From the NCBI RefSeq assembly GCF_024502345.1, contig NZ_JALDNN010000001.1: 64,000 bases of DNA; one strand, written 5' to 3'. This document shows positions 5,481 through 23,428 of this stretch, in pieces. Below the pieces are notes generated by a model that did no database searches, had not been told where the DNA came from, and saw only the letters and a program-made list of their open reading frames with translations. The DNA comes from Escherichia coli (GTDB taxonomy: Bacteria; Pseudomonadota; Gammaproteobacteria; Enterobacterales; Enterobacteriaceae). Each line of letters opens with the position of its first letter. Within the stretch, counting starts at the first letter, position 1. Both the position numbers and the translations under genes were made by a program.

Positions 5481-6833
5481 TCATAACCGAGAGAAATCAT
5501 TGAAAAGTGCAAGCCCCATTAACAGCACCAGCAGAATCGAGCCAATGCGATAACAAAAGTCTTGAACCCGCTCGGATACCGGTCCGCCCTTGATCTTTTC
5601 GATCGCAAGGAACAGCAGATGCCCCCCGTCAAGTACGGGCAACGGAAACAGGTTAATTATCCCTAAGTTCACGCTAATAAGCGCAAGAAACGGCAGGTAA
5701 TAAACTACCCCGAGTTCCGCTGTCATCCCAGCCCCCTTGGCGATAGAGATCGGCCCACTGAGGTTGTTCAGTTTCACATCACCGGTGATCAATTTTCCCA
5801 GCATACTGACCGTCAGCTTCATCAGCTGCCACGTTTTGTCCGTGGCTTCGACGATGGCGTTGAACGGCCCATACTGGCGTACAACTTTATACTCATCTGG
5901 CAAAGGAATGACTTTCGGCTCAATACCGACAAAACCAATCGCTTTACCATTACCCGGTTTACTCTCCGGGATTAATGTCAAAGACAAGGGACTCCCCTGC
6001 CTTTCGATTTCTAACGCTAAGGATTTACCCGGGTTATCCCGGACAAGCATCACAAAGGTCACCCACTGCGTTAAGGGCTGACCATCGACTTTAACGATCC
6101 TGTCGCCTGCTTGCAAACCTGCCTTGCTTGCCGCCGAGTTTGGCTGCACATTTTCCAGTACAGGTTCAATTTGCGGCCCACGAGGACGAATCCCCAGCGA
6201 AGATACCGGATCTTCTTTATCAGGCTCAAACGCCCAGTGACGTAAATCGAGCTTTACATCCCGCCGTTGGTCGCTGCCAAATGGCGCTACTGTAATGGTG
6301 GTGCTTTCATCGCCAATTTTATCGACCAACTGCAAACGCACGGCATCCCAATCAGGCGTTTCGATACCATCTACGGCTTTTAGTTCCGTACCTGGTGCAA
6401 TTTGTGCTTCCGCAGCTATCGAATTGGCTGCTATTTCACCAACCACCGGACGTACGCCAGGCACACCAATAATAAAAACCAGCCAGTAGGCTAAGATAGC
6501 AAAAATGAAGTTTGCAACCGGACCTGCGGCAATAATCGCCGCTCGTTGGCCAACAGATTTATTATTGAAGGCATGGTGGCGGAGTTCCGGAACGACCGGT
6601 TCTGCGCGCTCATCCAGCATTTTGACATAACCGCCCAGCGGGATCAGGGCGATAACATATTCGGTGCCGAGCTTATCAGTTCGCCGCCAGAGCGCCTTAC
6701 CAAACCCTATTGAGAAACGCTCAACGCGAACACCACAACGCCGGGCAACCCAGAAATGACCAAATTCATGCACGGTGATAAGTACACCCAGTGCAACGAT
6801 GAACGAAGCCAAATCCCAGAGAAAACTCAGCAT
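5481..6833 (-). CDS. rseP: regulator of sigma-E protease RseP (site-2 protease)
   Basis: 450-aa product from the internal ATG (plus-strand cat at 6831..6833); HEFGH zinc-metalloprotease motif near the N-terminus; PDZ-containing membrane protease. Confidence 0.95.
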
Positions 6834-12522: not shown

Positions 12523-12779
12523 TCTAAAATCCTCGGAGATGTGATCTGCCCGGCATTAAACCGCACAGATATAAAAGTGAAAAAGGGGGCCATATGCAGG
12601 CCCCCTAACCAAACGTGTACTACCTGGTCTATAAGGGCTCTCCCCCTTCATATTTCGCGCCGCAGATGCGTTATCTTCGCTCGCTCATCCCGGTCACTTA
12701 CTGATGTAAGCTCCCGGGAATTCTCGAGCTTGCCGCCTTTCTGCAACTCGAACTATTTTGGGGGAGTTATCAAGCCTTA

Positions 12780-13727
<948 letters not shown>

Positions 13728-20356: not shown

Positions 20357-21781
20357 TTACTGCATTAACAGGTAGATGGTGCTGTCGCCGCGCTGAATGT
20401 TCAGTGCCAGCACAGACGGTTTGCTGTCGAGAACTTTACGCAGTTCAGCGATGTTTTTCACTGCCTGCTGGTTCGCGCCAATAATCACATCACCTTTCTT
20501 CAGGCCGATCTGCGCAGCCGGAGTGCCCGTTTTCACGTTGTTCACTACCACGCCCTGATCTTTGCCTTTGTTGCTCATTTCAGCACCTTCAATGCCGTTG
20601 AAGATGGAGCTGGAATCAACCTGATTCTGGCTGCTCTGCTGCAGTTCCAGATTCACGTTGACCTGCTTACCGTCGCGCAGCAAGCCCAGGGTCAGTTTGC
20701 TGCCCACCGGCATAGTACCCACCTGAGCACGCAGTGCGGCAAAGCTGCTGATTGGCTTACCGTTCAGTGAGGTGATCACATCACCCGCTTTAATGCCCGC
20801 TTTTGCAGCGGAGGAATTAGGCAGAACCTGGCTTACGAAAGCACCGCGCTGGGTGTCAACTTTCATCGCTTTCGCCAGTTCGGAATTCAGCTCAGTCCCC
20901 ATAATACCCAGCTCACCGCGTTTCACCTGGCCGTATTCCACCATCTGCGAGGTCAGGTTTTTCACCATGTTGCTCGGGATAGCAAAACCGATACCGATGT
21001 TGCCGCCGTCCGGTGCGAGGATCGCGGTGTTGATACCGATCAGTTCGCCGTTCAGGTTAACCAGCGCACCACCGGAGTTACCACGGTTGATCGCTGCATC
21101 GGTCTGGATGAAGTTTTCGTAGTTTTCGGCATTCAGGCCGCTACGCCCCAGCGCAGAGACAATCCCGGAAGTTACCGTCTCTCCCAGGCCAAACGGGTTA
21201 CCAATCGCTACGGTGTAATCACCCACGCGCAGTGCATCAGAATCCGCCATCTTAATTGCGGTCAGGTTTTTCGGGTTCTGGATCTGAATCAGCGCGATAT
21301 CAGAGCGCGGATCTTTGCCAACCATCTTCGCGTCGAACTTACGACCATCGCTCAGCTGGACTTTAATCACCGTCGCGTTATCAACAACGTGGTTGTTGGT
21401 GACGACATAGCCTTTATCGGCATCAATGATGACGCCGGAACCCAGCGCCATGAATTTCTGTTGCTGGCCGCCGCCATTACCGCCCTGGCCCCCCTGGCAG
21501 AACGGAGAGCTCTGGAACGGTGAACCTTCCTGGCAGAACGGAGAATCATCACCGAAGAACTGCTGGAAATTACGCGGCATACGCGGCGTATTAACGGTTG
21601 TGCTACCTTCTACGTTAATGCTGACCACTGAAGGCATCACCTTTTCGAGCATCGGTGCAAGGCTTGGCATCTGCTGGGCTGTCGTTGCTGAAGAAGTCTC
21701 AGCCGCCGTTGCAGAGAGCGGAGATAACGCCAAACCTAAACTCAGAGCCAGTGCACTCAGTGCTAATGTGTTTTTTTTCAT
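20357..21781 (-). CDS. degP: periplasmic serine endoprotease/chaperone DegP (HtrA)
   Basis: 474-aa ORF with signal peptide, trypsin-like catalytic motif GNSGGAL and two PDZ regions. Confidence 0.97.
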   Translation of the reverse strand: MKKNTLALSALALSLGLALSPLSATAAETSSATTAQQMPSLAPMLEKVMPSVVSINVEGSTTVNTPRMPRNFQQFFGDDSPFCQEGSPFQSSPFCQGGQGGNGGGQQQKFMALGSGVIIDADKGYVVTNNHVVDNATVIKVQLSDGRKFDAKMVGKDPRSDIALIQIQNPKNLTAIKMADSDALRVGDYTVAIGNPFGLGETVTSGIVSALGRSGLNAENYENFIQTDAAINRGNSGGALVNLNGELIGINTAILAPDGGNIGIGFAIPSNMVKNLTSQMVEYGQVKRGELGIMGTELNSELAKAMKVDTQRGAFVSQVLPNSSAAKAGIKAGDVITSLNGKPISSFAALRAQVGTMPVGSKLTLGLLRDGKQVNVNLELQQSSQNQVDSSSIFNGIEGAEMSNKGKDQGVVVNNVKTGTPAAQIGLKKGDVIIGANQQAVKNIAELRKVLDSKPSVLALNIQRGDSTIYLLMQ

Positions 21782-21826
21782 GTATTTCAGTCTCGATTAA
21801 CAGATAACGCAAAATTGCTGTGTTCT

Positions 21827-21854
21827 TCAGATTCGTTTTATAGCGCGAAGTTCC
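21827..21854 (-). promoter_or_regulatory. sigma-E dependent degP promoter
   Basis: Minus strand reads GGAACTT, 16-bp spacer, TCTGA, about 45 nt upstream of the degP ATG; matches the sigma-E -35/-10 consensus. Confidence 0.7.
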
Positions 21855-21910
21855 GAACTAAAGTTTCTGCAAAAGGTAAAAATTTATTGTTCGTCTTTAC
21901 AAAAGCCTGG

Positions 21911-23428
21911 TTATTGTTCTACGGCCATCAGACGTCGGTATTCATCCCACGCATAGAGGTCGGTCATACCGCTGATATAATCCTGCAGCAGGCGGCAACG
22001 GTAATAATATTCCCATAGCGGAAACTCAGGAGAATCTGACGGTAATTTACTGACAGCCTCGACATAGGCCAGCCGATGGCGCGTCGAGAGTTTGCGGAAT
22101 AAGCGCGACTCAATAGGGAAACGTTTCACCCGTTCTTTTTCTACCAGTTCAGTAAAGTCTGATAACGACAGGCTTAATAAAGGACGATAAATCTCTAATA
22201 ATCCGCTAATGACCCGATAGCCCTGCAATTCAAGCTGCTCGACATCCGGATGGCTAAACACATGTTTTACAGCGACATTTTTATATAGCTTAAGAAGATC
22301 GCTGCATTCGCTGGCATCTTCCAATAATGCATGATTAAACGTTCCGGCGAAAATCGCAGGCAGATTATCAATAAATCGTTGTGCCGCGTAGGGTACCAGT
22401 TTATTTAGGGTGTTTACCCGTAAATACATAAAAAACTGATCTTCCGTACTGCGGCTTAAACTATTTGAGCGTGATTTTTCCCAGGCATTTTCAACCACCA
22501 GCGAAAAGAGCGAACCTTTCTCATGCTGACCCCACGCCTCGTGCAAATGATGATAAAGCTGCTCAACGGTAAATATTCTTTTCTCTACCGCATCTTCAAG
22601 GTCTGCCACACAATAGGAGATGTCGTCGGCAGCTTCCATAATCCACGTTAATGGAAAACGACTGTAAAGCGCCAAATTAAGTTCTTTACGCAACCGGGCA
22701 ATATAGGCTTCTTCAGAAAGATAATAACCCGGCTTTTTCATTAAATAGTGATGTGTCTCAGGCGTTTCGCCACGCCACCACGCCGGACGGGTATATTTTA
22801 AAATACCGCCAACCTGTGCCCAGGTGAGATTCATCCGCATCAATGTATGCACCAGACGAATGCCTTGTGCATTCCCCTCAAAATGACATAAGTCCTGACG
22901 AATCTTGCGCCGCAGCTCGTTAAGCGGTTCTTCCCCGTCCCGTAAACGTAGTGCCGCCACGCTGCAGCGATCGTCAGTCAGAGGCTGGCTTTCGGCATCT
23001 TCCGGGTGCAAACGTTGGCGAAACCAGTCATTTATCGCTGCTTCGCCAAAATGACCAAACGGCGGATTGCCGATATCGTGCATCAGGCATGACATCTCAA
23101 CAATGCTTTCAAAAGGTCCGGTCAGTTCATCCAGGCCGTATGCTTCCAGCAATTTAAGCTCTTTCAGACGGCTTAAAATTTCTTTGGCGATGTAGCGCCC
23201 CACCTGCTGGACTTCCATCGAGTGGGTAAGACGCGTGCGCACGGCGGCATTGCGCTCCAGTGGAAAAACCTGCGTCTTTTGTTGCAGACGACGAATTGCC
23301 GGAGAGTTGATGATACGCCCGCGATCGCTCTCGAAGATCCGCAGGATCTCATGTTCGGTTTTAACGCCCTGCGGTGAACGGTAACGACGATGCCAGTTTA
23401 TTTTTTTTCGGAAATCAATCTGTGCCAT
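21911..23428 (-). CDS. dgt: dGTP triphosphohydrolase
   Basis: 505-aa ORF with HD-domain motif (…[13 protein letters not shown]…). Confidence 0.97.

Follow-up and report, generated by a model that had tools for sequence, protein, structure and literature searches.

The site at positions 21827..21854 of the window, by which we mean the whole stretch of 64000 nucleotides of Escherichia coli DNA that was analysed, is almost certainly the long-known sigma-E (RpoE, ECF group IV) promoter of degP (htrA), and a reading of the sequence turns up nothing that opposes this explanation. The degP sigma-E promoter is already a textbook element. What is added here is small, namely the observation that the window has the majority spacer allele and not that of K-12, and a list of the regulatory parts in window coordinates (Table 1). 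The original prediction had placed GGAACTT-N16-TCTGA on the minus strand of the window and had described it as an expected element useful as a positional landmark. Its coordinates, strand and letters proved exact by direct sequence reading and pattern search, and we agree with the description, as the site is present, intact and ordinary. Its importance lies mainly in annotation: as a landmark, it settles the strand, the register and the identity of the genes along the series dgt, CpxR box, sigma-E promoter, fourU leader and degP.

Table 1 Features of the dgt-degP region in window coordinates; negative positions are counted from the transcription start at 21821.
Feature	Position	Strand	Details
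CpxR box degP2, GTAAATTACCGTCAG	22036..22050	-	Within the 3' portion of dgt; single exact match in the window
Weak secondary start inside dgt	21996	-	K-12 180669; Cappable-seq relative score 1.8 vs 41.6 for the main start
CpxR box degP1, GTAAAGACGAACAAT	21886..21900	-	-79..-65, centre near -72; exact, unique match in the window
Conserved A/T-rich block, ATAAATTTTTACCTTTT	21871..21887	-	-66..-50; 0.8-2.0 bits per column over 99 orthologous promoters
Sigma-E -35 element, GGAACTT	21848..21854	-	-33..-27; 7/7 vs the consensus of Rhodius et al.
Spacer, CGCGCTATAAAACGAA, 16 nt	21832..21847	-	Contains the sole intergenic difference from K-12
Sigma-E -10 element, TCTGA	21827..21831	-	-10..-6; sequence read and pattern search
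Discriminator, AGAAC, 5 nt	21826..21822	-	Between TCTGA and the start A
Transcription start +1, A	21821	-	Transferred from K-12 180844; ungapped alignment
HtrA fourU RNA thermometer (Rfam RF02700)	21776..21821	-	40-nt degP leader and first two codons
degP (htrA) CDS	20357..21781	-	474 aa; ORF list; RefSeq annotation in E. coli genomes of identical or nearly identical sequence

A search of both strands of the 64-kb window with GGAACTT-N16-TCTGA returned this single match, and the pattern appeared in none of 100 dinucleotide-preserving shuffles of the sequence (0/100). For 12 specified bases, simple arithmetic gives a chance expectation of about 2 x 64000 / 4^12 = 0.008 matches. A looser version of the pattern, GAACTT-N15-17-TCNNA, has a chance expectation of about one match (mean 1.14), yet in the window it matched only at the degP site. 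The motif sits inside the 129-bp gap between dgt and degP, with the degP ATG (21781) 45 nt downstream and, on the dgt side of the gap, a 505-aa ORF that ends at 21911; no intrinsic terminator was recognisable behind dgt when 21600..22100 was scanned. The segment 21700..22000 is 100% identical to the RefSeq-annotated strain AH04, where the ORF is annotated as degP. When used as a query against 5426 complete E. coli genomes, the 301-bp sequence spanning the site was found at an identity of at least 95% in 5424 genomes and of at least 99% in 5380, and the features annotated beneath the matches were dgt and degP. The gene order in the K-12 and AH04 records is btuF-mtn-dgt-degP-cdaR-yaeH. Judged by these matches, the window is E. 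coli chromosome and the gene downstream of the motif is degP, so that the predicted position upstream of degP is borne out by both the ORF list and the RefSeq annotation of matching genomes.

The elements were compared with what has been described for sigma-E promoters in general. According to Rhodius et al., these promoters combine GGAACTT with a TCAAA-type -10 element, a discriminator of 5 or 6 nt and a purine at the start; their spacers range from 15 to 19 nt with a strong preference for 16, and A/T-rich UP positions occur near -48/-49 and -57/-58. The degP spacer has the preferred length of 16 nt. The TCTGA element agrees with the later TCAAA consensus at 3/5 positions (T, C and the final A), and the C that has been reported as invariant in the -10 element of sigma-E promoters is kept. 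degP has been assigned to the conserved sigma-E core regulon (Rhodius et al.), its promoter is an active member of a published library of 60 sigma-E promoters, and htrA/degP was the second gene found to be transcribed by RpoE. From this literature we infer that the degP promoter depends on sigma-E.

The transcription start was located with two independent genome-wide K-12 datasets, K-12 differing from the window by two spacer bases. The supplement of Kim et al. (2012) lists a degP start at K-12 position 180844, with a 40-nt leader and an upstream sequence ending in ...GGAACTTCAGGCTATAAAACGAATCTGAAGAACA, and the Cappable-seq supplement supports the same position (relative score 41.6) and lists no further start between 180669 and 181771. 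Transferred to the window, this start lies 6 nt past the last base of TCTGA, with 5 intervening bases. The start had been predicted about 7 nt downstream of TCTGA, and as a 5-nt discriminator is within the 5/6-nt range of sigma-E promoters, we regard the mapped distance as close enough to the predicted one.

Comparison with the K-12 degP promoter, by alignment and by an ungapped comparison, revealed that the dgt-degP gap of the window is identical to that of K-12 MG1655 save for two adjacent spacer bases at 21846-21845, which are GC in the window and AG in K-12 (CGCG vs CAGG). The comparison with the published promoter that had been proposed for this site thus finds both core elements identical and two spacer bases different. 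The two promoters share the -35 element, the spacer length, the -10 element, the discriminator, the start base, the 40-nt leader and the upstream CpxR boxes; they differ in the spacer allele, K-12 having the minority CAGG and the window CGCG, which prevails in E. coli and is also the cross-species state. Exact 40-nt probes centred on the spacer variant found the CGCG allele in 4028 and the CAGG allele in 1388 of the 5426 complete E. coli genomes. Both alleles together account for 5416/5426 genomes, so that at least this many have the -35 and -10 elements unaltered. CGCG is also the consensus among 99 anchored orthologous sites of Enterobacterales, so that, by this sequence comparison, the K-12 allele looks derived. 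That the laboratory reference K-12 has the minority spacer allele of a textbook promoter is a mildly useful by-product of the analysis. A further difference from K-12 lies in degP itself, where codon 4 (21770..21772, minus strand) reads AAC (Asn) instead of the ACC (Thr) of K-12; the change falls in the DegP signal peptide, and the AH04 sequence is the same as that of the window.

Conservation beyond E. coli was assessed on 120 loci from species-representative genomes, which were retrieved with a degenerate DNA pattern for the DegP peptide PMLEKVMPSVV and span Enterobacteriaceae, Erwiniaceae, Yersiniaceae, Hafniaceae, Pectobacteriaceae and others. The scan set comprised the 112 loci whose sequence reached 150 nt or more upstream of the ATG, and a site was defined by at least 6/7 positions of GGAACTT, a spacer of 15-17 nt and TC..A. 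Such a site was found at most 200 nt from the ATG in 102/112 species, with a spacer of 16 in 99 cases, compared to 11/2240 shuffled controls (0.5%) that reached the site score. The apparent lack of a site in three Yersinia species was rejected as an artefact of the 200-nt limit, their sites being located 183-195 nt upstream of the ATG. In total, 105/112 species have a (G/T)GAACTT-N16/17-TC..A site upstream of degP, so that the claimed conservation holds in E. coli and in Enterobacterales alike. In the remainder, which consists of one Dickeya species, one Pantoea MAG (metagenome-assembled genome), one Enterobacteriaceae MAG, a Cedecea-like group and one Sodalis species, no site or a degenerate one was found. 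The Cedecea-like group (loci L026, L043 and L088) has GGAACTA-N16-TCTAT, and the Sodalis species has TGAACTA-N16-TCTTA. Within 400 nt upstream, the motif was altered or undetected in Dickeya undicola (L047), the Pantoea MAG (L059), and Cedecea and relatives; one altered example among these exceptional degP orthologues reads AAAACTT without TC..A. The upstream GTAAA block is kept in most of the orthologues with an altered or undetected sigma-E motif.

Among the 99 anchored sites, the -10 element takes the form TCT(G/C/T)A, with T at the third position in 97/99 and G (44), C (31) or T (24) at the fourth, while T, C and the final A are fixed by the selection criterion. The conservation of the -35 and -10 columns is circular, as these columns were selected for, whereas the upstream columns were unselected. 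Two conserved blocks stand out among the latter: GTAAA at 21900..21896 and the A/T-rich ATAAATTTTTACCTTTT (21887..21871). The spacer shows partial conservation between species, with its centre above the neighbouring non-motif columns.

The original prediction also stated that degP is further activated by CpxR. The boxes degP1 and degP2 are both listed as known CpxR sites (PMC9600279, Table S1), and both are present in the window. Compared with GTAAA-N5-GTAAA, degP1 matches in the first half-site only (GTAAA ... ACAAT); it coincides with the first conserved block, and its GTAAA is kept across species. The A/T-rich block contains TTTAC (-59..-55), the reverse complement of the CpxR half-site GTAAA, and overlaps the positions where sigma-E promoters have A/T-rich UP sequences. 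It is probably a UP-element and/or a second CpxR contact. By qPCR, degP was induced 26.6-fold in cpxA24 and 32.4-fold with pNlpE (NlpE overproduction), and the induction with pNlpE dropped to 6.4-fold in a cpxR deletion (PMC9600279). The presence of the two curated boxes and this published Cpx-dependent induction support the predicted activation, and we infer from the literature that CpxR activates degP in the window's strain as well.

Farther upstream, the weak secondary start inside dgt gives a leader of 215 nt, which is the length of the Salmonella htrAp1 leader. The degP2 box is located at -54..-40 from this start, with an adjoining TATTAT hexamer at -13..-8. Start 21996 and degP2 may together represent a CpxR-dependent upstream promoter.

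Downstream of the start, the leader matched the covariance model of the HtrA fourU RNA thermometer over its full length (model 1-46 of 46) with 77 bits, compared to a gathering score of 52, and the first base of the model, which was built on the transcript, coincides with the start site at 21821. The UUUU stretch (21814..21811) is placed opposite the Shine-Dalgarno GAGA (21794..21791). At one stem position, 21790, the leader has C in place of the U of the RF02700 consensus. Folding of the leader gave a weak minimum-energy structure (-3 kcal/mol, z = 0.77), which is no better in energy than shuffles and was not used as support. Weak folding is expected of a thermometer. For the Salmonella orthologue, the function of the fourU thermometer has been demonstrated in the literature by SHAPE and reporter assays, and by extension the E. 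coli degP leader would be expected to function in the same way.

DegP is a protease-chaperone required for envelope protein quality control and virulence. Taken together, the elements suggest a mechanism in which misfolded outer-membrane proteins or heat would free sigma-E from RseA. The sigma-E polymerase would then contact GGAACTT through sigma region 4 and TCTGA through sigma region 2, elements that it would prefer 16 bp apart, and the holoenzyme would begin transcription from the A at window position 21821. Phosphorylated CpxR at the GTAAA box near -72, and possibly also on the A/T block at -66..-50, would raise promoter output. In the transcript, the fourU hairpin of the 40-nt leader would mask the Shine-Dalgarno sequence at low temperature. 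With sigma-E and Cpx acting at the promoter and a fourU leader on the transcript, DegP synthesis would be controlled at two levels, that is, at transcription by sigma-E and Cpx and at translation by temperature, and the strain would keep the full three-layer control of DegP.

An alternative explanation is that the effective degP promoter is a sigma-70 promoter overlapping the motif, which would use TATAAA or TAAAAC of the spacer as its -10 element, with CpxR replacing the -35 element and GGAACTT and TCTGA being of secondary importance. We consider this very unlikely, even though related species offer some arguments for it. In Klebsiella pneumoniae, a second and stronger degP start (207608; 25 reads vs 11) maps to the G inside TCTGA, with a TAAAAT spacer hexamer 7 nt upstream, and for Salmonella htrA, leaders of 47 nt and 40 nt have been reported in the literature, the 47-nt one being constitutive. 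The conservation of the central spacer would also fit such an element. However, neither K-12 dataset has a start at 180837, both having only 180844, and the E. coli spacer hexamer TAAAAC is without the final T. TAnnnT is present at the hexamer position in just 16/99 orthologous promoters, on which count the idea that the spacer holds a sigma-70 -10 element conserved in all species was rejected. A consensus scan of 21600..22100 found no passing sigma-70-like promoter, which argues against an independent housekeeping promoter. Where a second start is present, it joins the sigma-E start and does not take its place. The overlapping second start is a lineage-specific addition and no alternative reading of the E. 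coli site. It is even less probable, to the point of being negligible, that the motif is a chance resemblance without promoter function. Promoter motifs are generally low in information, and the window contains 6 one-mismatch variants of the motif vs 3.2 expected; yet the exact 12-base pattern was absent from all shuffles, the motif is on the right strand and at the right distance from degP, the mapped K-12 start lies just downstream of it, and it is conserved in 105/112 species vs 0.5% of shuffles. Chance resemblance is already refuted by the start-site data and the conservation, and the shuffles also speak against it.

The Salmonella enterica htrAp3 and Klebsiella degP promoters have the same GGAACTT-N16-TCTGA motif and a fourU leader; the stress-induced htrA transcript of Salmonella has a 40-nt leader like that of E. 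coli degP, and Klebsiella has a sigma-E-compatible start at 207617. Unlike E. coli, both have a second start 7-9 nt upstream, within the -10 element, that fits the spacer hexamer TAAAAT, whereas E. coli has TAAAAC (21835..21840, minus strand) and no such second start. This difference is consistent with TAAAAT being, in Salmonella and Klebsiella, the -10 element of an overlapping sigma-70 promoter that is missing from E. coli. The P3 promoter of rpoH, the other founding sigma-E promoter, is of the same class and likewise used by sigma-E, and presumably has the GAACTT-N16-TCTGA signature, as degP does. It differs in driving the gene of the cytoplasmic heat-shock sigma factor, and neither CpxR boxes nor a fourU leader are known to us at rpoH P3.

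A correlation between the sequence of the spacer and the strength of sigma-E promoters has been described in the literature. It is conceivable, if rather unlikely in our view, that the spacer dinucleotide polymorphism measurably alters the strength of the degP promoter; we hold the linked idea, that the TAAAAT/TAAAAC difference in the spacer explains the single proximal start of E. coli, to be equally doubtful. If strength does differ between the two spacer alleles, measurements made on the K-12 degP promoter would be unrepresentative of most E. coli (~74% CGCG, ~26% CAGG).

Elsewhere in the window, a sigma-E-like site with one mismatch, GGAACTA-N16-TCGAA, was noted inside rseP (6360..6387, minus strand), in the orientation of rseP and bamA. 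It could be an internal sigma-E promoter already known to serve the bamA-skp-lpxD cluster, or simply a chance resemblance, given the 6 one-mismatch sites found vs 3.2 expected. Two Rfam matches above threshold were also recorded on the minus strand, the CssrA sRNA at 12585..12694 (136 bits) and the t44 RNA at 13533..13619 (83.5 bits).
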